A DNA stretch of 20,000 nucleotides. It comes from an uncultured virus (IMG/VR IMGVR_UViG_3300036865_000084) (Duplodnaviria; Heunggongvirae; Uroviricota; Caudoviricetes). The stretch lies in the IMG/VR virus record IMGVR_UViG_3300036865_000084. One strand, 5' to 3'. The notes below the pieces were generated by a model. It worked only from the letters and a program-made list of their open reading frames with translations. It made no database searches and was not told where the DNA came from. The translations under genes and the position numbers were made by a program. Position 1 is the stretch's first letter, and each line of letters opens with the position of its first letter. Positions 298 to 16,067 of the stretch are shown piece by piece.

Positions 298-482
298 TCG
301 AAGTCAGGACAGAGGGACACGTCTACGAGCTAGACCGTCTCGAGAATGCGCGAGGCGCGGAGCATCCGCCGGTCTTCGCTGTGACCTTCGACCGCCATCA
401 CAGAAAGCCGTTCACGACGCTCGAAAGTGCTTGGGCGTCTATCGAACGGTCGGTGCGCGAAGAGATCGAGAGGTACATGTGA
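285..482 (+). CDS. Hypothetical protein (65 aa, MQRIIEVRT...)
   Basis: ATG at 285 preceded by GGAGG at 272-276; overlaps the upstream stop; its TGA overlaps the next GTG start. Confidence 0.6.
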   Translation: MQRIIEVRTEGHVYELDRLENARGAEHPPVFAVTFDRHHRKPFTTLESAWASIERSVREEIERYM

Positions 483-1009
483 AGCGTCTCGCCCTCCTCT
501 TCCTCAACGGCTGCGCGCTTCTCGCAGGGCTCGACGGCTACGAGCAAGCCTCTCTCGATAGCGGTGCCGCCGAGGCCGCGCCGGCAGCCGACAGTGGAAG
601 CCTGGACGCCGACGCAAGCCTCGACAGCGGCGCGGAGTCTAGCATCGACGGCGGCACCGACAGCGGCAGTAGCGACGCCTCAAGCAGCGACGCCGCCATC
701 GACGCCTCAAGCCCCGACGCCGACGCCGACACGTGCCCGCTCCCGACGTCGCCCGCGACGTGCTCCGGCGGCCAGCCCGGCTACGACAGGCCTGCCACGT
801 TCTTCTTCACCGGTCACGCCGGTTGCGCGGGCGGCTTCACGCAATGTGCTCCCGTCGCGACGCCGGCGCAGTGTCAATGCGCAGGCACGTACAACTGCGC
901 GTGCGTCATGGCGGCGCACGCGGGCGGATACTCGAACTGCGCGCCCGACTCGGGCTACAACGTTACGTGCGATGATTCGTCGGGCACCGTCAACGTCAAC
1001 ATCTACTGA
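479..1009 (+). CDS. Putative lipoprotein with Asp/Ser/Ala/Gly linker and Cys-rich C-terminal domain
   Basis: GTG at 479 (GTGA overlap). N-terminus KRLALLFLNG-C looks like a lipobox; repeated SLDSG/SIDGG/AIDAS linker; 10 Cys in the C-terminal domain. This architecture is typical of myxobacterial surface proteins. Confidence 0.75.
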   Translation: MKRLALLFLNGCALLAGLDGYEQASLDSGAAEAAPAADSGSLDADASLDSGAESSIDGGTDSGSSDASSSDAAIDASSPDADADTCPLPTSPATCSGGQPGYDRPATFFFTGHAGCAGGFTQCAPVATPAQCQCAGTYNCACVMAAHAGGYSNCAPDSGYNVTCDDSSGTVNVNIY

Positions 1010-2333: not shown

Positions 2334-2465
2334 CGCCGTCACGTTGTCGGCCTGAAGTAGCTCCAAGATGCGCGGCTTCTCGGCTTCGGTGAACGCGACG
2401 GTGCCGTCGCCGACGTGCAGGATCAGGACGTTGCTTCCGATGCGTTCGAGTTTGATCCTGGTCAT
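2241..2465 (-). CDS. Hypothetical protein (74 aa)
   Basis: ATGA-coupled to the upstream receiver gene and fills an otherwise empty gap; its 3' end overlaps the convergent gene by 93 nt. Confidence 0.5.
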   Translation of the reverse strand: MTRIKLERIGSNVLILHVGDGTVAFTEAEKPRILELLQADNVTALQHHKLVNGKAESSPEKRVRKTHAAAGRRR

Positions 2466-2887
2466 TCGTCTTCTCCTGGCGGCAGCGTGGCGGCGCCCGA
2501 GCGCACAACGCGCACGATGACGCTGGAAAGCTCGTCGATCGAGGTCACGGGCTTCGGTACGAACAATGTTGCGCCCTCAAGGCTCCGCGGGTCAATGCCC
2601 GAGGCCGCTCCAGAGAAGACGATGATGGGGATGTTCTCGAAGAACTCGTCGTCGCGCTTGATCTCGAGAAACCGCTGGCCGGACATACGCGGCATGATGA
2701 GATCCAAGATGATGCAGTCGGGCCGCCGCTTCGGGTCGTAGAGGACTCTCAAGCCCTCGACACCGTCGGCCGCCTCGATGACCTCGAAGCCGTCGCCGCG
2801 CAGGAGCCGCGCCACGACATGACGAACGTGCTCGTCATCGTCGATGAGGAGGATGCGGACGCCGATGCCGGGCTGCCCTCTCGTCAC
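2462..2887 (-). CDS. Stand-alone response regulator receiver (CheY-like) protein
   Basis: RILLIDDD acidic pocket, IILDLIMP phospho-acceptor Asp, IIVFSG Ser and FVPKP Lys-Pro are all intact; no output domain; GTG 2887 overlaps the upstream TGA. Confidence 0.92.
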   Translation of the reverse strand: MTRGQPGIGVRILLIDDDEHVRHVVARLLRGDGFEVIEAADGVEGLRVLYDPKRRPDCIILDLIMPRMSGQRFLEIKRDDEFFENIPIIVFSGAASGIDPRSLEGATLFVPKPVTSIDELSSVIVRVVRSGAATLPPGEDE

Positions 2888-3291
2888 GGATGCCCGCCCT
2901 TGTCGTAGTAGTGCTTCACGACGAGCAGGATGATCGCGATGACGATGTACACCGCGCGCTCGCGCCACATCTTGGCCGCCGACACCGACGTCTGGATGAT
3001 GAAGCGCCCGGTGTCGCTGAGCTCGTCTTTCACGCGCTTCTCGCCGCTCTCGAGGCTCCCGAGACGGCGCCCCTGCTCGCGTACGCGGAGCTCCACCGCG
3101 CGAAGGCGCGCGAGGGCGTCTTCTGCCGTCGGCGGCTCGTAGTCGCGGCGGTAGTCGAGGTGGTCAGGCTGCACCTCTTCGCGTACGGGCGAGAAATCGC
3201 GCGACGGCGATCGTGGCCGCATCCCCGGGTCGTCGCGGGGCGCAAGCGGCGGTCTCGGTTGACCCGGTCGGGGCGGCCTCGGCGGCTCCAT
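2884..3291 (-). CDS. Hypothetical membrane protein (Pro-rich N-terminus, coiled coil, C-terminal TM helix)
   Basis: Heptad-like LARLRAVELRVREQGRRLGSLE, then TM AVYIVIAIILLVV; TAGTCT 6 nt upstream of the ATG. Confidence 0.7.
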   Translation of the reverse strand: MEPPRPPRPGQPRPPLAPRDDPGMRPRSPSRDFSPVREEVQPDHLDYRRDYEPPTAEDALARLRAVELRVREQGRRLGSLESGEKRVKDELSDTGRFIIQTSVSAAKMWRERAVYIVIAIILLVVKHYYDKGGHP

Positions 3292-3309
3292 GGGCGAAGA
3301 CTACTATAG

Positions 3310-3663
3310 CTAGAGCTTCATCGCCCGCCGCACGCTCGCGGCCTTCGGGATGTCCGACGCATCGTTCGGCGCGCACGCGTCGCACCAGTAGCCGGCGACG
3401 AGCCGCCGCGTCGCGGGGCCGGCGCACTTGCCGCACGGGGTCACCAGAAGCAAAAGATCGTGAATGAGCTCGTTACGGCCGTTGATCTGGAGCTCGACGA
3501 CGCGGCCGAGGCCCTCAAGCAAACTCGCCGTCACCTCGTCGGCGCGCTGGCGCGCGAGCCGCGCCTCGTGGTCGATTCGGACGAGCAAGGCGTCGAGGCT
3601 GAAGGTCTCGACGCTGGACTTCGACCGCGGAGAGTCAGGGCGCGTATCCGGCTCATCGGGCAT
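3310..3663 (-). CDS. Hypothetical protein with C-terminal CxxC...CxxC zinc-finger-like motif
   Basis: PCGKC...WCDAC. Start moved from 3705 to ATG 3663 because TATACT lies 7 nt upstream and this removes the head-to-head overlap with the selenoprotein gene. Confidence 0.65.
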   Translation of the reverse strand: MPDEPDTRPDSPRSKSSVETFSLDALLVRIDHEARLARQRADEVTASLLEGLGRVVELQINGRNELIHDLLLLVTPCGKCAGPATRRLVAGYWCDACAPNDASDIPKAASVRRAMKL

Positions 3664-3668
3664 CGGAT

Positions 3669-3680
3669 CGAGTATACTCG
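3669..3680. promoter_or_regulatory. Palindromic bidirectional -10 element CGAGTATACTCG
   Basis: Perfect 12-bp palindrome giving TATACT on both strands, 6 nt before ATG 3685 (+) and 7 nt before ATG 3663 (-). Confidence 0.65.
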
Positions 3681-3684
3681 CGTC

Positions 3685-3897
3685 ATGGTCGTCAGAATTC
3701 TCCATTGCTCGATCTGAGGCTACAAGACGAAGGCCGCCGGTCTGGCGGCTGCGCTCCGCGCCAAAGGTGCTGAGGTGACGCTCGGTCTCGGCAACCGCGA
3801 GGCGTTCGACGTCATTGTCGACGGGGAGCTCGTCTACTCGAAGCTCGAGGACGGGCTACTCACGAACGATGCCATTCTGAAACGGATGGGCGTGTAG
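3685..3897 (+). CDS. SelW/SelT/SelH (Rdx family) selenoprotein, CxxU motif, TGA at 3715-3717 read as selenocysteine
   Basis: Reading through the TGA gives MVVRILHCSI-U-GYKTKAAGLAAALRAKGAEVTLGLGNREAFDVIVDGELVYSKLEDGLLTNDAILKRMGV* (70 aa). CxxU-GY and FDV.VDG.LVYSK are Rdx hallmarks; SECIS-like hairpin immediately downstream. Missed by the ORF track. Confidence 0.9.
3715..3750 (+). promoter_or_regulatory. Bacterial SECIS element
   Basis: Stem GCCGCC (3733-3738) / GGCGGC (3744-3749) plus G3732.U3750; apical loop GGUCU follows a 21-nt spacer after the UGA; resembles the GGUC loop of the E. coli fdhF SECIS. Confidence 0.8.
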
Positions 3898-4524
3898 ATA
3901 CGCGACCGCGCTCGGACGATTGAGGCGCTTGTCGGCCGCGAGACCGAGCCACGGCTTCGACGGGAGACTCCACGCGCCGGGGGCGTGAATGAGCAAGTCG
4001 AGCGCTGTCGCCGCGCGTGCGCGGTCCATCCCCTTCCATTCGTGAATCTGCCATGGCCCGAAGGCGAGACCTTCGTCTTCGTTGCCGACGTGCCGCGGGT
4101 TCTTCGCCAAAACACTCTCGCGATGGGCGATGAAGATCAAGCTGACGACGTACTCCGCTTGCTCCTTCACGCCCGCGGCTTCGACGGCGTCAGCGCACTC
4201 GTTCGCGAACGTCGTCCAGCGCGCGAGCCGATCCTCTTTCGTCTCGAGGTTTCTCTCGGCGTACGCCGGCATCAAGCCGACGACGGCGTCGACGGCGTAG
4301 CGGTGGAGCGCGTCGGGAGGCGGCACCTCGGAGGCGGCGGCGGCGGGCTGAGGCGGCGCCGCGGCTGTCGGCGGCACCGCGATCGATGTCGGCGCCACCG
4401 GAGCTACCGCGGCAGGTAGCGCCAGATCGGGAATCGGGCTCGCCTCCGACATCATCAAGCGCATCACGAGCGCAGAGCCGATGAGAACGAACCCGAGAAA
4501 CGCGACGGTGGCGATGAGTTTCAT
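3856..4524 (-). CDS. Membrane-anchored lysozyme-like / lytic transglycosylase-like protein
   Basis: ATG 4524 (MKLIATVAFLGFVLIG, signal or anchor); Pro/Ala linker; IAHRES (catalytic Glu-Ser-like) followed by DEGLAFGPWQIH (GLMQ-like motif). Confidence 0.6.
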   Translation of the reverse strand: MKLIATVAFLGFVLIGSALVMRLMMSEASPIPDLALPAAVAPVAPTSIAVPPTAAAPPQPAAAASEVPPPDALHRYAVDAVVGLMPAYAERNLETKEDRLARWTTFANECADAVEAAGVKEQAEYVVSLIFIAHRESVLAKNPRHVGNEDEGLAFGPWQIHEWKGMDRARAATALDLLIHAPGAWSLPSKPWLGLAADKRLNRPSAVAYLHAHPFQNGIVRE

Positions 4525-4567
4525 GCGGGCGACGCTGCCACGAGGCGGAGCGCGCGGCAAGCGCTGT

Positions 4568-5512
4568 TCAGCCTCCGCCGGCCGGCTCGCTGAAGCCCGG
4601 AGCGCTCGCCTCGATGTAGACCGCGAGGCCCTCTGCGTCGCCGGCGAAGCGCTGAAGATCGACGTGTGTCGCGATGCCGGGGCACGTGCCCGTGTCGCTG
4701 TACTGGTGGAAGTCGTAGCTCGGCGTCGCCGGCAGGCGCACGCCGTAGTGCGCGATCGAGAGGTCGGCGGCAACGCCGTAGAGGTTCATGCTCTTCAAGA
4801 GCGTGTCGCCGATGTAGAGGACGGGCTGCCGCATCGACAGAATCGTCAGCGCGTCGATGCACACAAGCACCTCGTCGCGCGTCGGCGTCACATACCGACC
4901 GTTCACGAGGTACGGCTCGACGTCGATCATCGGCGGGAGCTCTCCCGGGTCGTCGCCGAGCTGCGCGACGAAGTGCTGCATTTGAAGCTTCACGTCGACG
5001 CCGGTGTAGAGGAAGTGGTAGGCGCCGCGGGGGAGGCACCCCTTCGAGTCGGGCCAATTGTCGACGAACGTCTTGTCGACGCCCGAGGCTCCCATCGTCG
5101 CGCGGATGTACGCGTAGAGCTTCTGCCGCCAGTAGAGCGGCGGGGCCGAAGCCGCTTTCTTCCAGTCGATGCTCTTCTGATACTCGCTGACGTCGATGCC
5201 TTCGGCGGGCATCGACACGACGTTCGTATCGGTGATGTCGCCGGTGACTTCGTAGATGGTGACGCCGCGGTGGCGGATGTGATTCTGGAAGTCGGGCGGA
5301 TGAACGTTGACCCACGCAAGGAGCGGTACGCCAGACTTCGCGTCGACGGTGAACTCCCCCGTCGTCGATTGGAAGAGATCCAAGGGCCCGTGGAGAATAT
5401 CCACAGCCCACGCGCTGATCGCGGGCGTCACCTCGCTGTCGTGGAGGGGACGGCAGCCGCCCGGGGGCGGAGGGTTCGGCGGCAGCGGCAACAGCGTCGC
5501 AGGTTGCGTCAC
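4568..5512 (-). CDS. GH25 muramidase (endolysin) with extra N-terminal domain
   Basis: GIDVSEYQ..IDW, YIRATMG, RGAYHF, PPMIDVE (DxE), HQYSDTG..PGI...VDL; GTG 5512 overlaps the upstream TGA. Confidence 0.92.
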   Translation of the reverse strand: MTQPATLLPLPPNPPPPGGCRPLHDSEVTPAISAWAVDILHGPLDLFQSTTGEFTVDAKSGVPLLAWVNVHPPDFQNHIRHRGVTIYEVTGDITDTNVVSMPAEGIDVSEYQKSIDWKKAASAPPLYWRQKLYAYIRATMGASGVDKTFVDNWPDSKGCLPRGAYHFLYTGVDVKLQMQHFVAQLGDDPGELPPMIDVEPYLVNGRYVTPTRDEVLVCIDALTILSMRQPVLYIGDTLLKSMNLYGVAADLSIAHYGVRLPATPSYDFHQYSDTGTCPGIATHVDLQRFAGDAEGLAVYIEASAPGFSEPAGGG

Positions 5513-5793
5513 GTCGTCTGCTTTCGCGCTTGCACCGCGCCCGCGAACCCCGTGACGAGCCATGCCGCGAGGCCGAGCCCCGCAGTCGCGAGCCCGGCTT
5601 CACGCCAGCGAGGGGATAGCGCGGCGGTGACGAGCCCGCCTCCCGCCGCCAGCGCGAGCCCGGCTTGCGGATTCGCGACCAAGGCGCCCGCGCCTGCGCC
5701 GAGCGCCAACGCGCCGAGGCCGAAGGCGACGTTTCCGATCGAAGTCGTCGGCGGCGACAACGGGTTTTCGCGGCGACGCTTCGCGAGCTTCAT
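5509..5793 (-). CDS. Small Gly/Ala-rich multi-pass membrane protein (holin-like or virion membrane protein), 94 aa
   Basis: ATG 5793 (MKLAKRRRENPLSPP...), 2-3 hydrophobic helices; coupled by ATGA upstream and GTGA downstream to the GH25 lysin. Confidence 0.7.
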   Translation of the reverse strand: MKLAKRRRENPLSPPTTSIGNVAFGLGALALGAGAGALVANPQAGLALAAGGGLVTAALSPRWREAGLATAGLGLAAWLVTGFAGAVQARKQTT

Positions 5794-5960
5794 CGCTGGG
5801 GCCTCACTGGGCCGCGCCGAGGCGCGCGGCTCGAGTTGCCCATGCCGTCGGCGACACTGCCTCCATGGCCCGCCGTCAGATCGGCGATCGTGCCGAGGAA
5901 GACGAGCTCGGGCTTCACATAGGGCTTCTTGACGGGCTGCTTCTTCTCGTCGTCGGGCAT
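5790..5960 (-). CDS. Lasso-peptide-type RiPP precursor (56 aa)
   Basis: MPDDEKKQPVKKPYVKPELVFLGTIADLTA|GHGGSVADGMGNSSRAPRRGPVRPQR*: exact YxxPxLxxxGxxxxxT leader, Thr at -2, core Gly1 and Asp8. Own TG-a-TACGCT -10 element 6 nt upstream; ATGA overlap with the next gene. Below the ORF-track size cut-off. Confidence 0.85.
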   Translation of the reverse strand: MPDDEKKQPVKKPYVKPELVFLGTIADLTAGHGGSVADGMGNSSRAPRRGPVRPQR

Positions 5961-5985
5961 GCCTCGAGCGTATCATGAAGCCAGG
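5961..5985. promoter_or_regulatory. Divergent promoter in a 25-bp gap (overlapping -10 elements)
   Basis: Minus strand TACGCT (5972-5967) with upstream TG, 6 nt before ATG 5960; plus strand TATCAT (5971-5976), 9 nt before ATG 5986. Confidence 0.5.
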
Positions 5986-6639
5986 ATGGCGCTCGACCCC
6001 GACTTCTTCCCCGACTTGCGCGCCGTCGCCGCAAGCCTTCAGGCGAACCCCGCGGACGTGATGCTTGTGCTCTACGGAGAATCTGGGTTGGATCCCGCCT
6101 CCCATCGCGCGGGCTCTGACTACTACGGTATCAATCAGATGAACGGCGGCTACTTGCGACGCGCGGGCATCGACCCCGCGGACTACCTCACGTGGCCCGC
6201 GTCGCGGCAGCTCGACGCCGTCGTCGCGCCGTTTCTGAAAGGGCTCGTGGCGAGTCAGCTCAAGAAGCCCGTGCGAAGCGCGGGGGTGCTCGAGGCCCTG
6301 AACCTCTATCCCGCCGCCGTCGGCAAGCACGGCGACGCGCCCGACGCCATCGTCATCGACGGAAATTCAAACGACGCCGCGGAGCGCGCCGCATATCGTG
6401 CGAATCAAGCGCTCGATCAAGATCACTCGGGCGCGATCACGATCTCGGATCTCGACACATGGCTTCTCACGCGCTCGAAAGACAAGCCGTATCAACAGGC
6501 GCTCGCGCAACTCGGCGGCGCGCCAACGCCTTCGCCCCCGACTCAAAAAAGCAGCATCACGGGCGCCTTCGGCAAGGCGTTCGCGATCATCGGAGCGGCG
6601 AGCTTCTTTGCGTGGGCGCTGAGGAAGAGACGCGTGTAG
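5986..6639 (+). CDS. Lytic transglycosylase-like protein with C-terminal membrane anchor
   Basis: VMLVLYGESGLDP, YYGINQM, AYRANQALDQDHSGAITISDL (EF-hand-like) as in phage SLT-type lysins; ends with Pro linker, TM helix and RKRRV. Confidence 0.8.
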   Translation: MALDPDFFPDLRAVAASLQANPADVMLVLYGESGLDPASHRAGSDYYGINQMNGGYLRRAGIDPADYLTWPASRQLDAVVAPFLKGLVASQLKKPVRSAGVLEALNLYPAAVGKHGDAPDAIVIDGNSNDAAERAAYRANQALDQDHSGAITISDLDTWLLTRSKDKPYQQALAQLGGAPTPSPPTQKSSITGAFGKAFAIIGAASFFAWALRKRRV

Positions 6640-6648
6640 GCTCAGCCC

Positions 6649-7470
6649 ATGGGCCAATTCACCAACTCGTGGCGCCTGCGCGTCCGGCGTCTCGAATACC
6701 TCATCGAGCGCGCCTTGCGCGCCGGTCAGGCGGTCGCCAACGCGTGGCTCCAGGGCGGCAACGCGTTCGGCGCCACGGGGGTCTTCGGCACGCTCGACAA
6801 TAACCCCGTCAACGTCATCACGAACAGCGTCACGCGGTTCGCGTTCGACACGAGCGGCAACATCGTGCCGGCAGTCGACAACAGCGGCTCCGTCGGAACG
6901 TCGGCGCGCCGCTGGGGGTCGTTCATCGGCGTCAGCGTCACCGCCGGCGGAGGCGCCAGCATCATCACGGTGAACCCCGCGGCTGGGCTCGTCGTCCGCT
7001 GGGGCGCGACGCAAGCGGCGCTCGCCGCGGGCGACATCGGCATGGACCTCGCGACGGGGCGCGGGACGCTCTTCGTCGGCGGCGTGAGCCAGGAGATGGC
7101 GGTTTTGGGGGATCTCCCCGGCGGCGGCGCGGCGACGTTCCCCGCGACCATCACATCAGCCTCACCGCAGTACACCGCCATCGGCACAGATCGGCTGATC
7201 GAGGTCGACGTCTCGGGAGGGCAGCCCTCCGGCGGCCTGCCGATCAAGTTCGACGCCGCTGCCACTACCGGCACGCAGCATACCGTCAAGGTCGTCGCCG
7301 GAGACGCCGCGGTCAACACCGTCGGAGTCAGCGGCAACGGACAAAACATCGAGGACCCCAACAACCTGGGGACGTTCACCGCCTCTACCGTCTTCATCAA
7401 GTCGCCCGGCGGCGCCGTCACGTGGATGTTCGACGCCAACAACCGCTGGGCCGTCATCGCGAGCGCATGA
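6649..7470 (+). CDS. Putative fibre/spike-like virion protein
   Basis: Gly/Thr/Asn-rich beta-type sequence; WLQGGNAFGATGVFGTLDNN...RFAFDTSGNI.P...SVGTSARRW resembles segments of tail-fibre-domain proteins; TAGGCT 6 nt before the ATG. Confidence 0.65.
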   Translation: MGQFTNSWRLRVRRLEYLIERALRAGQAVANAWLQGGNAFGATGVFGTLDNNPVNVITNSVTRFAFDTSGNIVPAVDNSGSVGTSARRWGSFIGVSVTAGGGASIITVNPAAGLVVRWGATQAALAAGDIGMDLATGRGTLFVGGVSQEMAVLGDLPGGGAATFPATITSASPQYTAIGTDRLIEVDVSGGQPSGGLPIKFDAAATTGTQHTVKVVAGDAAVNTVGVSGNGQNIEDPNNLGTFTASTVFIKSPGGAVTWMFDANNRWAVIASA

Positions 7471-8996
7471 AAGCCATGAAAAACCATCTCGCTCTTCTCG
7501 TCGCGCTGTTTTTGATCGCGTGCCCCGGCGATACGACGCCTGTCGCCGTCGACGCCGGCGCGAAGCCTGCGCCTACGGATGCACCCCCGCCGCCTCTGCC
7601 GCTCGACAACGCGCCGGCGCAGCCGACGCCCGACTGGATGCTCAAGCCGCGGCCGCCGCTCGGCAACGTCAGAGCCGCCGGCACGCGCCCGCCCATCATC
7701 CCCGCGAGCTGGACGGTGCCCGCGTGGTTCATCGATCCTGCGAATAGTTCTGGTGCCGCGAGCGACAACAATACCTGCACGACATCGGGAGCTCCGTGCC
7801 TGACGTACGCCGAAATAGCGGCGCGATGGGGCACGTACTTTCCCAGGCTTCGACAGACGACCACGTTCACGTGGATGTCGAGCCACACCGATGGCACGGA
7901 TCCTGTCATCCAGAACCCGTACCTCGAGAACGGCGCGTCGCTCTTCAACAACGGGACGTTGGTGCAGACGTGCACGGGCACATTGGCTGGCGTCGTTGCC
8001 AAGAATCGGAACACGCCGCAGCTCCTCAACGCGACGTTGCCGGCGGGAGCGGCGATCAATCAGCTCATCATCAACACGACCCACGCTTCGCGCGCCTGGA
8101 CGTACACGTCGCTCGGAGCCGGCGCCTTCTCGATCTCGCAGCCGCTCGTCAGCCAAACGTTGCCGCACAACTTTATCTTAGCGGGCTCCGAAGTCGACAC
8201 GTGGGCTAACACCGATGCCGTCACGTGCAACACGCTCTCGAACATCAACTTCGTGCAGCTTTATCCAACGGTCACGGACCTCGGAACTGGATCCGCGAAC
8301 GCGGGGATCTACCTGCAACAGATCGGGGTCTTTGCCCCGTTTTCGACCTCGGATCTCGTCCTCATCAACAGTCAGGTCCGCTTCTTCGAGGTATTCTCGA
8401 ACAAGGGGATACAGACGGTCCTCTCGACAAGTAATGCGACGAATGGCGTCTACAACACCGACGTCCTCGGGAACTTTCAGAAGCAAACATGCGCGCAAGG
8501 AAGTACGGCGTTCGTTGGCGGTATCGCGCGCGGCCCACAGCTCTCCGGATGCACCGTCATCATTGACGGCGACGCAATCGCTGCTGCGACCAACAACATC
8601 ATTCAAGGGCTTTCATCGACTGTTGCCGGCGTTACCGGCCTCGGTCTCGTCTACATCGAATCAGGCAAGTCGCTCCAAGCTTCCGCCGGCGCTACCGGTA
8701 TCGCCAATAACCTCTCCATCGGCACACCGATCCTCTGGGGTCCAGGTAACTTTCGCCTCGTACAGACTGCGCACGTGACCTATCCAACAGGCGCCGGCTC
8801 GACGACATTCATCCAAACTGGCGCGTTCACGATCAACGGATTCACGACGGCGTGCGGGCACTCCAACGCGAACAACCCCGACGTCATCAACTGCGCCATC
8901 AACATCACCGGCGCGAATCTCGATGCCGCTCAAGGCATCGCGGGCTTCGGCGGTAACGCGTTCATCCCCGGCGGCGGCGGCATCTCGACGTTCTAG
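7467..8996 (+). CDS. Putative spike/adhesin-like beta-rich protein with lipoprotein-like N-terminus
   Basis: ATG 7467 (ATGA overlap); LALLVALFLIA-C lipobox-like; Pro linker; WFIDP...SDNN....APCLTYAE motif typical of the cap preceding beta-helix domains. Confidence 0.7.
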   Translation: MKAMKNHLALLVALFLIACPGDTTPVAVDAGAKPAPTDAPPPPLPLDNAPAQPTPDWMLKPRPPLGNVRAAGTRPPIIPASWTVPAWFIDPANSSGAASDNNTCTTSGAPCLTYAEIAARWGTYFPRLRQTTTFTWMSSHTDGTDPVIQNPYLENGASLFNNGTLVQTCTGTLAGVVAKNRNTPQLLNATLPAGAAINQLIINTTHASRAWTYTSLGAGAFSISQPLVSQTLPHNFILAGSEVDTWANTDAVTCNTLSNINFVQLYPTVTDLGTGSANAGIYLQQIGVFAPFSTSDLVLINSQVRFFEVFSNKGIQTVLSTSNATNGVYNTDVLGNFQKQTCAQGSTAFVGGIARGPQLSGCTVIIDGDAIAAATNNIIQGLSSTVAGVTGLGLVYIESGKSLQASAGATGIANNLSIGTPILWGPGNFRLVQTAHVTYPTGAGSTTFIQTGAFTINGFTTACGHSNANNPDVINCAINITGANLDAAQGIAGFGGNAFIPGGGGISTF

Positions 8997-10387
8997 ACGT
9001 CGCTCACCGCCATCGTGGTCGAGGGGCAGGCGGGATCGAAAATCTTCTGTCCGAAGCCTCCGCTCGCAACGCTCGCCAGAAAATTCGCAAAAGAGAGGCT
9101 TCGGAGACCGGTCAAGGTGTAGGTCGCCGGGTCCATCGCCGGGAGCTGACTGATCGGCGCGGTCGAAACTCCGAAGAGGATGTCCGAGTACCCTCCGCCC
9201 GTGCCGGTGATTGCAAAGGCGGTCCCCGTGTCGAGAGAGCCGACCGTGACCTGGCTTCCCGGCTTCACGAAGACCGCGCTCGTGTGATTTGCGCTCCCGA
9301 AGAGGCCATGCCGGATGACGAGGCTCGAGTCGTGGTCCACGGTCAAGAAGGACGTCGAGTTGTAGACGCCGATCGGATGGTGGACATGGAAATGGCTCGG
9401 CTGGTTCCATATGATCGCCGGGCAGGAGTCGAAGATGTCGAGGTCGCTCAACATGACCCCACCGTTCAAGATCACAGAGCAAGCTCGAACGAGGTTGTAA
9501 TTCTGCGCGAAAAAGGTGGAGACGACGAGAGCGCCGGTGATGTAGCAGGAGTTCGCGGTGACGTTGGCGAGGCCTGGGGTGTAGTTACTGAGCTCGGAGT
9601 TGTAGAATGCAACTTGCCCCTTCTCGAGCCCGAAACCGGCATGGCCGATGTTCGCCGGCCCTTGAGGAATCTTGACGAGCCGGAACGCAAGCGAAGGTTG
9701 AACGCCCGCTCGCGTCGAGAAGGTCAAGCTTCCGACGTCCTGAATGAGCACTTGCCCGAGGAGCCTTCGTTCGAGGATCTGATACGTCTCGTTGCCGGCG
9801 AGCGTGATCTGGAGATTATTGAACGGCGCGGTCGAGGAGGGTTTGTTCGGGACGCTCACCGCCGCGACGCCGCCGCCGAGATCCTGGTAGACGATGAAGC
9901 CTCCGCCGGCGTTCGGCCCCGAGGTGAGAACGACCTGCTTGTTCAAGTAAGGCGTCCAAGAGCCGATCGCGAGGTCGGTGACAAGTGTGATTTGTCCCGA
10001 TGGACCGACGTTCGTGACAAGGTTCGTTGCGGCGCTGAGCTGGCCCGTGTGAAGCACCTGCGACGCGCCCCCGCCGAGCACCGTAACCGTGCCGCCGATG
10101 CCGTAGATTTGCGAGAGCAGAATCGGATCCGTCTCGGGCCAATCGGTCTCGAATTGAAGCGTCACAGGCACCGGGACGGGCCTGAAGAAGCCTGTGCGTC
10201 GAAAGTATTCTGCGAACGTGCGAAGCGGCGCCGCAATGCCGTCAGCGCCGTCGCTGCCGACGTTCGCGTCAAAGCGCCAGAGCGGCTGCGAGAAGACGGC
10301 ATCGCCGCGCGGCTGAAGTGGTAGCGCCGCCGCGACGTGACGAGCCTGTAGAAACGCCTGCGCCGCCTGAAGTGCGTGCCGTCGCAT
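8993..10387 (-). CDS. Putative spike-like beta-rich protein, paralogue of 7467..8996
   Basis: ATG 10387 with TAGAAT 7 nt upstream; WRFDANVGSD.ADG..APLRTFAE..RR.G, TDPI, YQDLGGG...VS.P and GFG...F.P align by eye with the convergent gene. Confidence 0.7.
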   Translation of the reverse strand: MRRHALQAAQAFLQARHVAAALPLQPRGDAVFSQPLWRFDANVGSDGADGIAAPLRTFAEYFRRTGFFRPVPVPVTLQFETDWPETDPILLSQIYGIGGTVTVLGGGASQVLHTGQLSAATNLVTNVGPSGQITLVTDLAIGSWTPYLNKQVVLTSGPNAGGGFIVYQDLGGGVAAVSVPNKPSSTAPFNNLQITLAGNETYQILERRLLGQVLIQDVGSLTFSTRAGVQPSLAFRLVKIPQGPANIGHAGFGLEKGQVAFYNSELSNYTPGLANVTANSCYITGALVVSTFFAQNYNLVRACSVILNGGVMLSDLDIFDSCPAIIWNQPSHFHVHHPIGVYNSTSFLTVDHDSSLVIRHGLFGSANHTSAVFVKPGSQVTVGSLDTGTAFAITGTGGGYSDILFGVSTAPISQLPAMDPATYTLTGLRSLSFANFLASVASGGFGQKIFDPACPSTTMAVSDV

Positions 10388-10454
10388 AGATCCGATTCTA
10401 CCCGGCTGCCGCGAATCGTCTACGACAGCCCGCCAATCGTCTATGATGCCTGTC
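10388..10454. promoter_or_regulatory. Divergent promoter region with AATCGTCTAYGAY direct repeat
   Basis: TAGAAT (minus, 10400-10395) and TATGAT (plus, 10442-10447), each 7 nt from an ATG; repeat copies start at 10414 and 10435. Confidence 0.55.
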
Positions 10455-11069
10455 ATGTCTCCCGAGACCGCACGCCTCTATCGAACCATCGACTACGTCC
10501 TGCCGACCCTGCCCGGGTGGTGCGCACCGGAGAAGGGCAAGAAGATGGCCGAGGTCATCCTCGAAAACGAATCGGAGGTCTGCGTTGAGCTCGGCGTCTT
10601 CGGCGGACGGAGCCTCGTCGCGATTGCACTCGCTTTGAAGGCACAACGAAAGGGCCGCGTCTTCGGGGTCGACCCCTATACCGCCGCGGCGGCGCTCGAG
10701 GGCACCAACGATCCCGAGAACGACGCCTGGTGGCGGAAGCTCGATCACGAACAGATCCACGCTGCCGCCGAGCGCGTGCTCGACGATCTCGAGCTCTCGA
10801 AGTTCGCGATCATCCTTCGAGCGCGCTCGCAAGACGCATCTCGGAACTGGCCGTCGATCGATTTGCTGCACCAGGATTCCAATCACTCCGAAGAGGTGTC
10901 GTGCGCCGAGGTCGAGCTCTATGCGCCGGTCCTCAAGCCCGGCGGCATCTGGATCATGGACGACACTAACTGGCAGACGACGCGCAAGGCGCAAGACAAG
11001 CTTCTCGCGCTCGGCTTCACTGCGCAGCACCGCGAGGAGTCGTGGGCGATTCTGCGAAAGCCTCTGTGA
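10455..11069 (+). CDS. Class I SAM-dependent methyltransferase (Methyltransf_24-like)
   Basis: LPGWC..EK, VELGVFGGRS, GVDPY, IDLLHQDSNH, LKPGGIWIMDD. Confidence 0.88.
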   Translation: MSPETARLYRTIDYVLPTLPGWCAPEKGKKMAEVILENESEVCVELGVFGGRSLVAIALALKAQRKGRVFGVDPYTAAAALEGTNDPENDAWWRKLDHEQIHAAAERVLDDLELSKFAIILRARSQDASRNWPSIDLLHQDSNHSEEVSCAEVELYAPVLKPGGIWIMDDTNWQTTRKAQDKLLALGFTAQHREESWAILRKPL

Positions 11070-11082
11070 ATCGCGAAGCCGG

Positions 11083-11691
11083 TTACAGCAGCTCGCGTAG
11101 ACGATTCAGCCACCACGACGTATCAGGCAGCCCGACGATACGGCTCGTGAAGAACGTCAGTGTGCGGCGCCCGTAAAGTTCATTCCCCGCGGTGGCACGC
11201 AGGCGAGCCGTCTCCTCGGGCACATGGTCGAGCCCTGCGGCTTTGAAGCGTTCGACCCAATACGACTCCACCTGCTCGTTGACGTGGTGGTGGCCGCCCT
11301 GTCCCGGGGTCGCGAAGGTGATGCAGACGTGGCGGCAGCGCTGAAGCGCCGCCATCCAATTACACATGTACTTCGCCTCGACGTGCTCGACGAACTCGGC
11401 GCTCCATCCGAGATCGTAGATGTCGATCGGCGTGAACGGGCCCGTCGTGAAGTCGTGGCCGACGACGGCGTCGCACCGCCGGTGCGCGAGGGCCGCGGGG
11501 TCGCCTTCGACGCCGAGCGCCTTGCCGACGCGCTCCTGAAACCAGCGGGTCGCGAAGCCGGCGCCGCACCCGACATCGAGCACGCTCTTGACGCCGTAGG
11601 TGGTGATGAGTCTCTCCCAGATGTCGGGGAGCCACGTGGTGACGTCGGGGCCATTGACGTTGGATCCACCGAGATGCGAGGGGGTTGTCAT
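11083..11691 (-). CDS. Class I SAM-dependent methyltransferase
   Basis: SVLDVGCGAG motif I, GVEGD, YDLGWSAEFVEHVE, ATPGQGGHHHVNEQ..YW, typical of glycan-locus methyltransferases. Confidence 0.9.
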   Translation of the reverse strand: MTTPSHLGGSNVNGPDVTTWLPDIWERLITTYGVKSVLDVGCGAGFATRWFQERVGKALGVEGDPAALAHRRCDAVVGHDFTTGPFTPIDIYDLGWSAEFVEHVEAKYMCNWMAALQRCRHVCITFATPGQGGHHHVNEQVESYWVERFKAAGLDHVPEETARLRATAGNELYGRRTLTFFTSRIVGLPDTSWWLNRLRELL

Positions 11692-11700
11692 AGGATTTTT

Positions 11701-12387
11701 CTACACCATCTTCTCATGCCGCGAGTCGGTTTGGTCCCACGGAAAACCGATCGGCGGCGGCGGATCCATTCGCGCGCTCGGCGAGCTTGGCCGCTGGATG
11801 AAGAGCCGGGGACTCAACGTGTACGAGTAGACGTCGTCTTTCTTGGACCACTCGGCGAGGATGCTGTCGACGTTGCCGATGTAGACGCGGCTTTCACATA
11901 GCCTGCGCGCGAACTTCCGAGACATCGCGTACGCGTGCGTCGTCAGCATGCCGCGGTTGCGGATGACATGTTTTCTAACGCGACACCTTGGCTCGCATTC
12001 GTAGCCGCCGCCGAGGTAGAGAAGGTCCCAACTCTCCGGCACCTCGTCGATCATGACCCCGAAGCGCTTCTCGAGCGTCGCGCCAGGACACGAATCGAAG
12101 ATGACGACTTCTTCTTGCGTCGGCTGGTAGCCGGCCTTGAGCAAGACCTCGCGCGTCGTCAGCATGAAGTCGTCTTCGAAGACGAGAAGACGATTCTCTA
12201 GCTTGCCGTCCGCGAGCTCTTCCCACAAAACCGTGTGGCTGTCGCACGGGCCGCCGACGGCGGGGAGGCGTTGGCACTTTTCGATGCCGCACATCGCCAA
12301 CTCTTTTTGCGACTCAGCCCATCTGTCCGGCCGGCGGTCGAGGTTGATGAGGAAGATCCGATCGAAGTACGAGTCGACGGTTTGCAT
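11701..12387 (-). CDS. Glycosyltransferase family 25-like
   Basis: FDRIFLINLDRRPDRW, SH..LW, LVFEDD, WDLLYLGG, TTHAYAMS. Confidence 0.88.
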   Translation of the reverse strand: MQTVDSYFDRIFLINLDRRPDRWAESQKELAMCGIEKCQRLPAVGGPCDSHTVLWEELADGKLENRLLVFEDDFMLTTREVLLKAGYQPTQEEVVIFDSCPGATLEKRFGVMIDEVPESWDLLYLGGGYECEPRCRVRKHVIRNRGMLTTHAYAMSRKFARRLCESRVYIGNVDSILAEWSKKDDVYSYTLSPRLFIQRPSSPSARMDPPPPIGFPWDQTDSRHEKMV

Positions 12388-12393
12388 CACATC

Positions 12394-13332
12394 TCACATC
12401 TCGCTGAGCGGCTGGTTGTCGACCCAGTGATGCGTCGGCGCAACCGGGATCGGAAACGGCTCCCCGCGAAGCGCGCGCTCGCGGAGCTCGCGGAGATTGA
12501 AGGCGTTGCCGAGCGTCCACGTGCGGCTCGCTTCGCGCTGGAGACGGGTCAGGAGCGCGTTGGAGCTGTAAGGGCCGTCGGGTCCCGGCCACGGCTTGTC
12601 GAGCCGGATGACGGGGTTATCGCCGTGTCCGAGCTCGTCTTCGACGGTGCCGCACGCGCGCGTGATTTTCATCGGGACCCCGAGCCGCTCGAGGCGCGTG
12701 CCGAAGTCCCAGTCTTCGCCGCCGATGGAGTCGTAGATTTCGTCCTGACCGTTCACCGCGAGCGCGTGCTCGATGGGCAAGGAGAACGTGCCGCCGTAGA
12801 GCCACGATCCGTAACACGGATGAAGCTTCTCGTCGGGGAGGCGCTTCAAGCGTGAGTCCTGACCGGCTTCGAAGCGGCCGTCGGCGGAAGGGCCGCCAGC
12901 GCGCCAGCTTCCGTCGGGGGAGCACTGAAGGTCGAGATACTTGCAAGTCGTGCCGGCGAGCACGTATCTGTTTTCGGCCGCGTGCAGGTGCGCCTTCAGC
13001 CAGCCAGGCAGCAAAACGGATAAGTCATCGACGAAGGCGATGTGGGGGTGTCGAGCGAGCGCCAGCGCGGTGTTCCGCGTGTTGGCCGCCGCGAAGTAAT
13101 CTTTCGTCGTGAGCCGATGGGGGCCTTGCCACACCGTCGGCTTCGGGGGGTGGTGCTCGATCGCGAAGCGGCCGTCGACGATGCGTTTGAAGTCGTCTCG
13201 GCGCGCGTCGTCAAGTTTCCCGTCGATGACGAGCACCTGCATCCCTGGCAAGACACCCTCGCGCGCGAGGCTCCAGACGAACCAGTCGAAGCGCGGGCGC
13301 TGGCGGAACGTCAGATAGGCGATCGTGAGCAT
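12394..13332 (-). CDS. GT-A fold glycosyltransferase (GT2-like)
   Basis: LTIAYLT, VLVID, AANTRNTALALA....IAFVDD (DxD-like), AVNGQDE.Y...GGEDWDFGTRL. Confidence 0.82.
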   Translation of the reverse strand: MLTIAYLTFRQRPRFDWFVWSLAREGVLPGMQVLVIDGKLDDARRDDFKRIVDGRFAIEHHPPKPTVWQGPHRLTTKDYFAAANTRNTALALARHPHIAFVDDLSVLLPGWLKAHLHAAENRYVLAGTTCKYLDLQCSPDGSWRAGGPSADGRFEAGQDSRLKRLPDEKLHPCYGSWLYGGTFSLPIEHALAVNGQDEIYDSIGGEDWDFGTRLERLGVPMKITRACGTVEDELGHGDNPVIRLDKPWPGPDGPYSSNALLTRLQREASRTWTLGNAFNLRELRERALRGEPFPIPVAPTHHWVDNQPLSEM

Positions 13333-13481
13333 AGCTTTGCGATGACGTCTTCGAGGTGACGGACGCGGTTCTCGATCGAGTTTCGGAACGCGCGCTCGCT
13401 CGGCGTCTCGTCACGTCTTGACCGCGCCGTTTCCTCGCGCAGCGCCGCCAGCGTTTGCCGCATGACTTCGTCCATTTCCAT
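13311..13481 (-). CDS. Small hypothetical coiled-coil protein (56 aa)
   Basis: MEMDEVMRQTLAALREETARSRRDETPSERAFRNSIENRVRHLEDVIAKLCSRSPI*; GAGGGGAG SD upstream; bridges the gap between two genes. Not in the ORF track. Confidence 0.5.
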   Translation of the reverse strand: MEMDEVMRQTLAALREETARSRRDETPSERAFRNSIENRVRHLEDVIAKLCSRSPI

Positions 13482-14517
13482 CGACTCCCCTCATCAAACA
13501 CGCGATGTCGAACTCGTCGACTTCCGCGAGCCAGGCTTCTTCGTCGTGTACGCCGAAGGAGAGCACGAGACGGTCCGGGTGTCTCGGGTGCCGCGCCATG
13601 CCGGCGCAGAACTCGACGCCGATGCGGCGGAAGTAAAACGGCGACGAGATGCCGGCGACTTTGAGATTTCTGTCGAACGCCACGAACATGTGCACGTAGA
13701 CGCGTCTCGCTTGAAGGATGATTGTCTCGTGCACGACCGCGAGGTAGCCGCCGAGCACCTCGACGAGCTGACTACTGCCGTGAAGATCGCCGAGCGGGCG
13801 GCACGGCAATGACTCCGAGACGGGCTTGGTCTCTCCCGGAGCGCGTACGACGGTCGGATCGACGCTGTAGATCCAGCGGAGCTTTCCGTTCGGCAGGATG
13901 ACGGGCATCCAATTCTTCTCGGCCCGGCCGGGTGTCTCGGTCACCTGCACGTAGGCGCGAGCGACGTCGAAGTCGTCCGTCAGCTCGACGAGAGCCATCT
14001 CCACGCGCCGCCCGTTGAGCACCGTCGCGCTCGCGCCGAGTCGGTTGCCGAGCGAGAAGAGCCGCATGTCTTCGTAGCCGCTCCGCGGGGCGAAGTCGTC
14101 GTTGCTGATCGTCTTCACGCGCCTGACGGCGAGGCTGCTAGTGAGCCGCAAGAAGAGATTCACCGTGTGCGGGCTCGGCGTCGACCCAGGCAGCCGGTAA
14201 TTCACGCAGCGCACGGTGCAAAGGAGCTCTCCCTTGTGCGCGACGACGGAGGGATTACACGGCCAGTAGCCATCGGGCACCGCGCTGAGCGGCAGCCCGA
14301 TCGGGCGAAGCTTCGTGCTCTTGCAGAGCGCCTGAAGGCGCGGAACCGGCGCCGCGTGCACGCGCGGAGACGACGCGGACACCGACATCGCGGCGGCGGG
14401 GATGGGCGCGGGCGCGACGGCGGGCGCCTCTTGCGTCTTGGAGAGGTTCAAGAAGTAGGCGCGGTTTTTCGCGGCCTGAATCGCGGCGGCGGCCTTGGCG
14501 CGCTGGGAGATCGCCAT
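13411..14517 (-). CDS. Beta-propeller glycoside hydrolase-like protein (GH130/GH43/DUF377-like)
   Basis: ATG 14517; CNPSV..VRCVNY, GYEDMRLF, EKNWMP, GSSQLV, YLAVVHE, PFYF...GVEFCAG, SFGVHD. Confidence 0.75.
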   Translation of the reverse strand: MAISQRAKAAAAIQAAKNRAYFLNLSKTQEAPAVAPAPIPAAAMSVSASSPRVHAAPVPRLQALCKSTKLRPIGLPLSAVPDGYWPCNPSVVAHKGELLCTVRCVNYRLPGSTPSPHTVNLFLRLTSSLAVRRVKTISNDDFAPRSGYEDMRLFSLGNRLGASATVLNGRRVEMALVELTDDFDVARAYVQVTETPGRAEKNWMPVILPNGKLRWIYSVDPTVVRAPGETKPVSESLPCRPLGDLHGSSQLVEVLGGYLAVVHETIILQARRVYVHMFVAFDRNLKVAGISSPFYFRRIGVEFCAGMARHPRHPDRLVLSFGVHDEEAWLAEVDEFDIACLMRGVDGNGRSHAANAGGAARGNGAVKT

Positions 14518-14563
14518 GTCGAAGTCATACTCCCGAGGGCGCGCTGCGGCTATACTCAGGCGC

Positions 14564-15241
14564 GTGAACGAGCGGCTTCTCTGGGTCGGCGGACTCGTAC
14601 TCGGCGGTGTTGCCGTCGCAGCTGGCGTCGCCGCGGCGACGAAACCGAAGCAACAGTTAGCGCCGTCACCGGGCGGGTGCGCGCCGCAGCCCCCGCAGCC
14701 GTTCTTGATACGCACGAACTACCTGAAGACGCCGGGCGGTCTTCCGGCGGCGAACAAGTACCGCACCGAGAAGTACGGCTACTTGCCAGGGCTGACGGAT
14801 TCGAGCTGGAATCCGGCGACGGCCGCCTCGAACGCCGTCCCGACGACGTTCTTCGGGCTACCGATCACGCTCAACAGGCGCGTCGTGCCTGTCCTCAAAT
14901 GCGTCGAGCAGGTCATCAAGAGCGAGTGTGTCGCGACCCTGTACACGCCGCGCGCGCTCTCTGGCCTCCGGAACTATAACAGCTACCACGGCGGCGAGAT
15001 CTCCAATCATATGTGGGGCATCGCCATCGACATCGATCCAGATCGCAACCCGTGCTGCGGCTGCGTGGGGCACTGGGCCAACGACCCGCGGTGCGCTCGA
15101 CCGTTCGAGCAGCAGTACGACCTACCGAACTGCTGGATCGGTGTGTTCGAGCGCTACGGCTTCTACTGGCTCGGCCACGACGAGCACATTCGCGACACGA
15201 TGCACTTCGAGTTTCTCGGCGACCCGGAGCTAGTCGGATGA
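14564..15241 (+). CDS. M15-family zinc peptidase (peptidoglycan peptidase) with N-terminal TM anchor
   Basis: GTG 14564 with TATACT 7 nt upstream; TM LLWVGGLVLGGVAVAAGVAAA; SNHMWGIAIDID (SxHxxGxAxD) and DTMHFE zinc motifs. Confidence 0.9.
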   Translation: MNERLLWVGGLVLGGVAVAAGVAAATKPKQQLAPSPGGCAPQPPQPFLIRTNYLKTPGGLPAANKYRTEKYGYLPGLTDSSWNPATAASNAVPTTFFGLPITLNRRVVPVLKCVEQVIKSECVATLYTPRALSGLRNYNSYHGGEISNHMWGIAIDIDPDRNPCCGCVGHWANDPRCARPFEQQYDLPNCWIGVFERYGFYWLGHDEHIRDTMHFEFLGDPELVG

Positions 15242-15915
15242 CGGACTGGCGCATCATCCAGCGTGGTGCGGCGCCGGGCCCCCTGGTGCTCGTCTACCAC
15301 TTGAACGAGCGCGCGAACGATGCGCTCCGGCTAGCTGCACCAACTGCGACGATCGCGAACGACACCGTTCACGGCTCGATGTACCAAGACGCCGAGACCA
15401 TCGACAAGAGCATCGCAGAGATCGGCGGAGGCCCCTACGCGCCGGTGGTGCTTGCGGGCTTCAGCGCCGGCGGTCTCGCGACGAGACGTGTCCTTGAGCA
15501 AGGCTCAGATCCAGATGCGCTCGTGATCGCCGACGGCACCTATGCGATGAGCGAGTCGCAGATGGCGGCGTGGAAGGCGTACGCCGCCAAGGCTCGCGCC
15601 GGCCAGCGCGTAATGCTCGCGTCGCACTCGGCGTACTCGGCACCCAACAACACATGGCACGTGCTTCAGGAGATCGCGGGGGTGCCGCTGCCGCTCAACG
15701 GGGAGAACCGATTCCAAGACGGAAACCTCATCATCTTGTCGTCGCCGACGGCGCATAACTACCACGGAGAGGTGCTGCTCCCGCGGATGGTTGGGGAAGC
15801 GCTCACAATGCTCGGGGCGCAGAAGCCAGCGCCCGAGAAGAAGCCCGCGCCGTGGGTCGCAGCGCTCGGCATCCTTGCGGCGGCGGGGGCGGCTGCGATA
15901 ATCATCAGGCGATGA
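15238..15915 (+). CDS. Alpha/beta-hydrolase fold protein with C-terminal membrane anchor
   Basis: ATG 15238 (ATGA overlap); VVLAGFSAGG nucleophile elbow; ends KPAPEKKPAP-WVAALGILAAAGAAAIII-RR. Confidence 0.75.
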   Translation: MTDWRIIQRGAAPGPLVLVYHLNERANDALRLAAPTATIANDTVHGSMYQDAETIDKSIAEIGGGPYAPVVLAGFSAGGLATRRVLEQGSDPDALVIADGTYAMSESQMAAWKAYAAKARAGQRVMLASHSAYSAPNNTWHVLQEIAGVPLPLNGENRFQDGNLIILSSPTAHNYHGEVLLPRMVGEALTMLGAQKPAPEKKPAPWVAALGILAAAGAAAIIIRR

Positions 15916-16067
15916 TCGAGCAACCCCGCATCGCCCGCGAGCTTGCTCGCCGCTTGCGCGAACGGCCCTCTGACGCGTCGGTGCGGGAAGACGCGGCGCT
16001 CGCGCTCGAGAGCTTGGCGGACCTCTACGAGAGGACGTTTCGGATGCTCGAGAGGCTCAAGAAGTGA
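15912..16067 (+). CDS. Small hypothetical helical protein (51 aa)
   Basis: ATGA overlap upstream and GTGA overlap downstream; MIEQPRIARELARRL... Confidence 0.6.
   Translation: MIEQPRIARELARRLRERPSDASVREDAALALESLADLYERTFRMLERLKK

Follow-up and report, generated by a model that had tools for sequence, protein, structure and literature searches.

Selenoprotein systems closest to the locus

SelW-like proteins form the most abundant selenoprotein family of the Sargasso Sea survey, with 48 genes (PMC1088965), and make up 11.3% of marine selenoprotein genes in a second study (PMC9402790). The Sargasso Sea report also describes bacterial selenocysteine insertion sequence (SECIS) elements with a G in a small apical loop (PMC1088965), and by a term search the Global Ocean Sampling paper mentions viruses in its introduction only (PMC2398784). 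Here we analyze a 20,000-nucleotide stretch of an uncultured member of the Caudoviricetes (IMG/VR record IMGVR_UViG_3300036865_000084; the whole stretch is called the window), in which positions 3685–3897 on the plus strand are, on balance, best read as a SelW-like (Rdx) selenoprotein gene, carried as an accessory gene by a tailed phage or prophage of approximately 75 kb. The gene has the same fold, N-terminal CxxU motif, UGA position and in-frame SECIS element as bacterial SelW-like proteins but, unlike them, it sits on a phage-like genome, shares no more than about 53% identity with its relatives, has a His before the Cys and does not contain GRFP.

Bacterial recoding of UGA by SelB and a SECIS element has its prototype in Escherichia coli fdhF. 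As in that system, the hairpin in the window lies immediately 3′ of the UGA and within the reading frame, with a G in its small apical loop; it differs in lacking an Rfam match, and its recognition by SelB is predicted. Virus-encoded selenoproteins that rely on the selenocysteine (Sec) machinery of the host are known from poxviruses, whose glutathione peroxidases differ from the window's gene in belonging to eukaryotic viruses, in having their SECIS element in the 3′ untranslated region and in representing another protein family. The thioredoxins and glutaredoxins of phages are, like SelW, small redox proteins with a thioredoxin fold, and no viral structures come closer to the window's product (template modeling (TM) score, 0.5–0.6), but they carry CxxC, involve no recoding, are not members of the Rdx family and reach E = 0.014 at best, which is below significance. 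Finally, tRNA-Sec has been predicted in Basilisk-like Bacillus phages (PMC6145125) and in huge wastewater phages (PMC10747093), with speculation on Sec-containing phage proteins. Those systems suggest that phages engage Sec decoding, but the papers concern tRNAs and no selenoprotein gene, whereas the window is free of tRNAs.

By itself the gene is an ordinary one: both the family and the UGA/SECIS mechanism have long been known and are common in bacteria. The unusual part is its location on a phage-like genome. A full-text literature search, with most subscription journals outside its reach, found no description of a phage-encoded selenoprotein. This agrees with an earlier reading of the same DNA, made from the letters alone (the sequence-only reading), which knew of no well-characterized phage example, but the gene is not unique, as similar genes occur on about 50 uncultivated IMG/VR phage contigs described below.

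A SelW-like gene with an in-frame UGA codon

The following features define the locus.

3685–3897, plus strand: predicted SelW/Rdx-like selenoprotein coding sequence, 70 residues, with TGA in frame at codon 11.
3706–3717, plus strand: CxxU redox motif, from Cys8 (TGC) to Sec11 (TGA), which the structural model places after strand 1 and before helix 1.
3715–3717, plus strand: UGA predicted to be read as selenocysteine, with TGA in 156 of 160 relatives.
3732–3750, plus strand: predicted bacterial-type SECIS hairpin with a 7-bp stem (one G-U) and apical loop GGUCU, starting 17 nt past the U of the UGA.

Translation table 11 splits the frame into two pieces, 3460–3717 (whose stop is this TGA) and 3775–3897, and large protein collections contain only a 40-residue tail of the product, which is the window's own fragment (word-based search and HMMER). 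Read through, the frame runs from the ATG at 3685 past the Cys codon TGC at 3706–3708 and the TGA at 3715–3717 to a TAG stop at 3895–3897, with 59 sense codons between TGA and TAG. The 70-residue product contains the motifs HCSI-U-GY and FDVIVDGELVYSK, exactly as the sequence-only reading had described them.

That reading proposed a hidden selenoprotein of the SelW/Rdx family with its Sec at the U of CxxU, to be checked by a profile search of the read-through product. In this search the product scored 41.8 bits against the Rdx model PF10262 (cut-off, 22.6 bits; E = 1.3e-10) and 39.3 bits against TIGR02174 (CXXU_selWTH; cut-off, 34.2 bits), exceeding both cut-offs, and it fell below that of the equivalog model NF041051 SelTWH_Campy (40 versus 88 bits). 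An AlphaFold model of the product, computed with a 46-row family alignment as input, reached a predicted local distance difference test (pLDDT) score of 90 and a predicted TM score (pTM) of 0.76, with a strand at residues 2–7 and a helix at residues 14–26. When the model was compared with the PDB using Foldseek, every match at E ≤ 0.001 was an Rdx-family structure (3DEX with TM 0.84, 2OJL, 2FA8, 2LJK (MIEN1), 2OKA and 2P0G), followed by mouse SelW (2NPB; E = 1.6e-3, TM 0.74), with ordinary thioredoxins trailing at a TM of about 0.55. The product also matched 2LJK by sequence (E = 2.7e-6).

Distant homologues were found with HMMER among 1.84 billion representatives, giving 15 matches at E ≤ 0.001, and 13 of these were aligned, leaving out the window's own fragment and a 1024-residue protein that matched in part, over a short stretch. 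The U of the window falls opposite the second Cys of CxxC in 11 of the 13 aligned homologues, opposite Ser in one and opposite Trp in one. The library protein with Trp (P0008) is probably another hidden selenoprotein, its TGA having been translated with a Trp-reading code by the gene caller.

Conservation of the UGA and covariation in the SECIS hairpin

Closer relatives were collected by peptide-pattern scans in which the codon position was left out of the pattern, and 80 of 123 confirmed metagenome loci and 80 of 102 confirmed bacterial-genome loci were retained. At the CxxU position, TGA occurred in 79 of the 80 metagenome relatives (the other has TGT) and in 77 of the 80 from bacterial genomes (two TGT and one TGC). 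Combined with the Cys of the distant homologues, this is the pattern that the sequence-only reading expected of aligned homologues at position 11. The bacterial relatives come from Acidobacteriota, Polyangiaceae, Thermoleophilia/Gaiellaceae, Planctomycetota and Gemmatimonadota, among others, and selD was found above the cut-off in four of five bacterial genomes with TGA-type relatives.

The hairpin that follows the UGA pairs 3732–3738 with 3744–3750 (7/7 pairs) and is in exact register with the hairpin of the SelW-like family. Across 66 family sequences, 86.1% of cells were paired compared to 72.8 ± 1.0% in shuffles, and 56 cells showed double changes compared to 13.9 ± 5.4, a count reached by none of 500 shuffles; controls in which the pairing partner was slid gave 21–55% pairing. 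Paired codons change in concert, with Ala...Ala in some sequences versus Val...Thr in others, as a constraint on the RNA predicts. A covariance model of the UGA–SECIS region built from 65 relatives, without the window, produced a full-length match at 3715–3762 (45.5 bits; rough E = 4e-10), and no other match in the window exceeded 12.2 bits. The hairpin of the window draws its weight from register and covariation rather than from folding energy.

Judged by its sequence, the architecture at 3685–3897 is that of a genuine selenoprotein gene, and the UGA at 3715–3717 almost certainly encodes selenocysteine. The family models, the fold, the conserved TGA and the SECIS model all uphold the earlier reading on this central point.

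Decoded gene or silent cargo

Several results weigh against a functional selenoprotein gene of a phage. The copy in the window is the most divergent of those collected, with 47–53% identity to its best neighbors compared to a median best-neighbor identity of 79.7% across the 160 relatives (blastp), and two almost invariant residues are replaced in it (Tyr7 to His and Gly39 to Glu), in addition to missing the usual GRFP motif. The folding energy of the hairpin alone is not significant (z = 0.07, with 93 of 200 shuffles folding as well), and a search of the window against Rfam at gathering scores was negative, with chance-level matches at 3650–3950. At the 5′ end, the start is without a clear Shine–Dalgarno sequence (weak signal) and overlaps by 21 nt the first ATG of a predicted divergent open reading frame (ORF) at 3310–3705 on the minus strand. 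As to the phage assignment, identity to the most similar complete phage genome, G001 (described below), is only 30–38%, marking a distant relation; no capsid, portal or terminase genes were found in the window, which covers 20 kb of an approximately 75 kb contig; and relatives of the window's baseplate-hub-like protein, sought in prophages as a hint of the host, came to a single weak match (E ≤ 1e-5) per sample in two sets of 401 bacterial genomes. Finally, two independent metagenome runs (X2 and X3) hold parts of the region, but their contigs leave the TGA unbridged.

The alternative that best survives these data is a phage gene that is not decoded, either because the host lacks Sec machinery or because its SelB is blind to the hairpin, in which case translation would stop after 10 residues and the gene would be silent bacterial cargo. 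We consider this unlikely, although the unusual divergence of the copy and its two deviating positions would fit, as would the lack of any decoding gene nearby. Pfam searches of 143 ORFs (33 + 110) found no SelA, SelB or SelD family in the 20 kb window, ARAGORN found no tRNA, hence no tRNA-Sec, and Rfam was likewise negative, which agrees with the statement of the sequence-only reading that selA, selB, selC and selD are not present. Set against this, the gene stands at about 50% identity to every sampled relative and nevertheless retains 59 open codons after the UGA, the conserved core residues, all pairs of the stem and a loop of the family type. That frame, core and stem are conserved in the most isolated copy argues for function. 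No donor lineage was clear when its neighbors were ranked by blastp.

SelW-like genes on other phage contigs

A second line of evidence against silent cargo comes from other viral contigs. Reference collections contained no counterpart of the gene: there was no significant match in PHROG (best E = 0.34), none by tblastn in 50,697 deposited phages with four SelW-type queries (the window's copy, a distant Cys homologue and two phage copies), none in plasmids and, for the structural model, no fold match at E ≤ 0.001 in a viral structure library. A scan of IMG/VR with the window's own peptides also found nothing, a misleading result because the C-terminal motif of the phage copies differs. The outcome was different with a DNA pattern for the YC-x-x-UGA–SECIS signature, which detects 109 of the 160 known relatives and misses the window (His before Cys). 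This pattern matched 53 IMG/VR contigs, comprising 50 with complete ORFs, two chance matches and one ORF cut by the contig end. All 38 distinct sequences among the 50 complete ORFs scored above the Rdx cut-off (31–78 bits), each with a single in-frame TGA, and an Rdx match with one TGA was likewise present in each of the five largest SelW-bearing records (56–96 kb; CheckV, 11–52%).

The matched loci (L195–L247) are mostly AT-rich (31–40% GC) and fall into at least three sequence subfamilies. Annotation of their flanks covered 102 of 158 ORFs of at least 100 amino acids (aa), with two loci (including a near-duplicate) and any ORF antisense to a longer one set aside, and revealed phage-family matches at nine of nine loci annotated. 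The flanking genes encode a UvsX-like recombinase (E = 2e-71), a gp32-like single-stranded DNA-binding protein, a DnaB-like helicase, an exonuclease and baseplate wedge subunits (E = 7e-26), as well as PhoH, thymidylate synthase (ThyX), Hsp20, an endolysin, a CobS-like ATPase and a Dda-like helicase. Going by this gene content, the eight AT-rich loci among the nine appear to carry a set typical of marine T4-like phages; the ninth, GC-rich locus (L206) is different, as described below.

The family covariance model matched 27 of the 53 IMG/VR loci at E ≤ 0.01. In an alignment of 17 distinct phage hairpins, which had been fitted to that model, 81.5% of cells were paired versus 65.1 ± 2.4% in shuffles and 18 cells showed double changes versus 6.2 ± 2.0, with slid controls at 29–41%. 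Neither selB nor a tRNA-Sec above the gathering score was found on these five largest records with SelW. That ORFs remain intact and hairpins covary on about 50 phage contigs argues for selection in phages.

The window's SelW shares 26–44% identity with the phage copies, from which it follows that the gene was acquired separately. A second IMG/VR pattern, which also matches the window, gave 28 Rdx-like sequences among the 120 matches listed, all in the set found by the first pattern, and the matches listed included no viral sequence closely related to the type of SelW in the window. Whether at least two unrelated kinds of phage, one GC-rich, approximately 75 kb and from wetland, the other represented by about 50 AT-rich contigs that are mostly marine T4-like, carry SelW genes with a working SECIS element is an evenly balanced question on these data.

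One viral SelW contig is GC-rich (L206; 58% GC) and carries the phage copy closest to that of the window (44% over 59 aa). Its SelW gene adjoins a Dda-like helicase, two glycosyltransferases and a glutathionylspermidine synthase, another thiol-redox accessory gene.

Phage context of the window

The hub-like protein served as a marker linking the window to related phages. It has 27 relatives, the best of which (63–66% identity) lie on contigs of 9–67 kb and others on contigs of 59, 75.6 and 77.5 kb. In IMG/VR it was found at 19 loci, the best being record G001, a genome of 76,031 bp with direct terminal repeats and a CheckV completeness of 100%. A scan of 101 ORFs of at least 150 aa showed that G001 encodes a DNA polymerase, primase-helicase, Dda-like helicase, thymidylate synthase, endolysin, two tail-fiber proteins, virion structural proteins and an integrase. 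Homologues of six of the 32 window proteins are present in G001, as listed here with neighboring genes of interest.

479–1009, plus strand: gene on the upstream flank of SelW, homologous to one of the complete phage G001 (35% over 126 aa).
4568–5563, minus strand: GH25 lysozyme (endolysin-like), from a family match.
5509–5793, minus strand: small downstream gene, divergent from the hub-like gene both here and in G001, where its match is short (60% over 30 aa).
5929–6639, plus strand: baseplate-hub-like/transglycosylase-like protein with a G001 match (38% over 178 aa).
6649–8996, plus strand: two putative tail proteins of 273 aa and 509 aa; Atlas leads only (T4 gp9/10-like; beta-helix).
7467–8996, plus strand: the 509-residue protein, with a G001 match (32% over 463 aa) and three paralogues in the G001 tail-fiber module.
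8993–10387: gene with a G001 match (33% over 100 aa).
11083–11691: methyltransferase with a G001 match (32% over 143 aa).

The genes at 479 and 5509, the hub-like gene and the gene for the 509-aa protein occur in the same order in the window and in G001, with SelW between the first two in the window, and no Rdx gene was found in G001. Homology and partial synteny with a complete, terminally repeated phage genome bear out the phage-like nature that the sequence-only reading had assigned to the element. We read the contig as a probable phage or prophage distantly related to G001, and SelW as a putative lineage-specific accessory gene beside the lysis genes.

A less probable alternative, and one we regard as quite improbable, is that the contig is a stretch of bacterial chromosome or some other mobile element and that the gene is an ordinary bacterial SelW-like gene. 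By family, the window encodes a GH25 lysozyme, an M15 peptidase and a protein that matches baseplate-hub PHROGs in their C-terminal part, with PHROG matches of the endolysin type for GH25 and M15 and a baseplate-hub match at E = 7e-7. It further encodes three glycosyltransferases, two methyltransferases, an HNH nuclease, a DUF6527 protein, a receiver domain and a CmpB-like membrane protein. Glycosyltransferases, methyltransferases and receiver domains occur in bacteria too, and hallmark virion genes are missing from the window, both of which would suit a chromosomal origin. So would the comparison with the 50,697 deposited phages, which gave no BLAST-level match for the whole window as DNA and none by tblastn for four of five proteins (the 487-aa, hub-like, 273-aa and 509-aa proteins), the fifth, of 434 aa, having two weak cyanophage matches. 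The GH25 protein has no relative in IMG/VR.

Opposing a chromosomal origin are the six proteins in common with a complete, terminally repeated phage, including a tail-fiber module in the same order, together with hub-like relatives on contigs of 51–77 kb and only one hub-like match at E ≤ 1e-5 per sample of 401 bacterial genomes. The nearest Atlas neighbors of the 273-aa and 509-aa proteins, which are leads only, come exclusively from Uroviricota clusters; the single-sequence fold of the 273-aa protein has a pLDDT of 40.9. The window is also tightly packed, its stop and start codons often overlapping, and is without housekeeping genes; many of its ORFs have no family match, and the largest has no relative among 5.8 billion proteins.

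At 10443–17304, two methyltransferases and three glycosyltransferases are clustered with a 368–434-aa protein that weakly resembles the mannosyltransferase/FkbM-methyltransferase regions of cyanophages. This cluster may be a glycan-modification module of the phage.

Integrity of the TGA codon

A 75,123-base contig from a wetland metagenome (run X1) contains the window at about positions 802–20801 and is without difference over 2500–6500, at a word depth of 15.6. This run may be the window's own source and is thus not independent, and the sequences compared are assembled contigs. These circumstances, and the failure of X2 and X3 to bridge the codon, are what speaks for a sequencing or assembly error at the TGA or a fresh nonsense mutation in a CxxC gene. 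Such an error is very unlikely, because the TGA is conserved in nearly all relatives and a matching hairpin follows it; no variant was reported at the depth given. Stop-codon recoding is known in some phages, and one distant homologue has Trp at the Sec position, but the possibility that this element reads TGA as an ordinary amino acid is effectively refuted by the codon's use elsewhere in the window, where, as the sequence-only reading stated, it is a normal stop, ending 10 of 19 other candidate genes and lying in frame in none, and where a window-wide scan found no convincing case of another TGA-interrupted frame.

Two assemblies of the contig differ in length by exactly 99 bases (75,222 in the protein collection versus 75,123 in the metagenome run), which would be consistent with a complete genome that assembles as a circle and overlaps by a k-mer at its ends. 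At 3533–3559, other X1 and X2 contigs (for example, of 6,215 and 1,106 bases) align over these roughly 25 bases only and then diverge, and one contig joint jumps from 3559 to 6210 with the support of 20 bases only. This segment may be a short repeated element common to other genomes.

Proposed decoding and its implications

With the window's gene read as a phage-borne selenoprotein gene, transcription would start from a dedicated promoter with the box TATACT and yield a leaderless SelW mRNA. During infection, host SelB with Sec-tRNA(Sec) would bind the hairpin as the ribosome reaches the UGA, and selenocysteine would be inserted at codon 11. The result would be a 70-residue CxxU thiol/selenol oxidoreductase, which the phage might use as many phages use their thioredoxins and glutaredoxins. 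Because decoding would depend on Sec, the phage would need a selenocysteine-competent host to benefit, and it is reasonable to suppose, as the sequence-only reading did, that the element depends on the selenocysteine machinery of its host. The sequence-only reading went further and suggested two roles for the protein that find no evidence here: redox control of the element's many Cys-rich proteins (15 of the 19 other candidate genes encode less than 3% Cys) and a selenium-dependent switch.

If the gene is decoded, phages exploit the rarest translational recoding system of their hosts, and selenium supply and host sel genes become factors in phage–host biology. Standard gene callers systematically truncate UGA-containing genes of this type. 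Should SelW genes with working SECIS elements indeed be carried by two kinds of phage, they would constitute an undescribed class of selenium-dependent phage accessory genes, tying fitness and host range to the Sec machinery, and some of the SelW-like signal that passes as 'bacterial' in environmental metagenomes would be viral.

Local arrangement and transcription

SelW is the sole plus-strand gene in a minus-strand block that extends from 2462 to 5960, and a possible promoter of its own precedes it.

3673–3678, plus strand: −10-like box TATACT, ending 6 nt before the SelW ATG; putative promoter of the gene.

Boxes of the form TANNNT at a gap of 6–7 nt precede seven of 32 predicted starts in the window, compared to 25 of 1,445 start-like triplets (1.7%; binomial P of about 1e-6), the motif having been first noticed by eye and tested afterwards. 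Besides that of SelW, they include those before the starts at 1531, 6649, 10387 (minus strand), 14564 and 17291, and Shine–Dalgarno motifs are scarce throughout the window. This pattern points to leaderless transcripts, and possibly to a host group that commonly makes them, and SelW itself probably has its own promoter and a leaderless mRNA.

Just upstream of SelW, the minus strand encodes a stand-alone response-regulator receiver domain (2462–2968; E = 5e-17), and the divergent ORF at 3310–3705 specifies a small protein with a C-terminal CxxC...CxxC pair. On the other side, a minus-strand gene at 3856–4524 overlaps SelW by 42 nt at their 3′ ends and encodes a 222-residue protein without a family match, with an N-terminal hydrophobic anchor, an Ala/Pro-rich linker and a C-terminal domain that resembles a lytic transglycosylase, by eye only. 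Further downstream, a 26-base stretch at 5462–5487 is repeated in inverted orientation about 44 kb onward in the contig (record positions 49581–49606).

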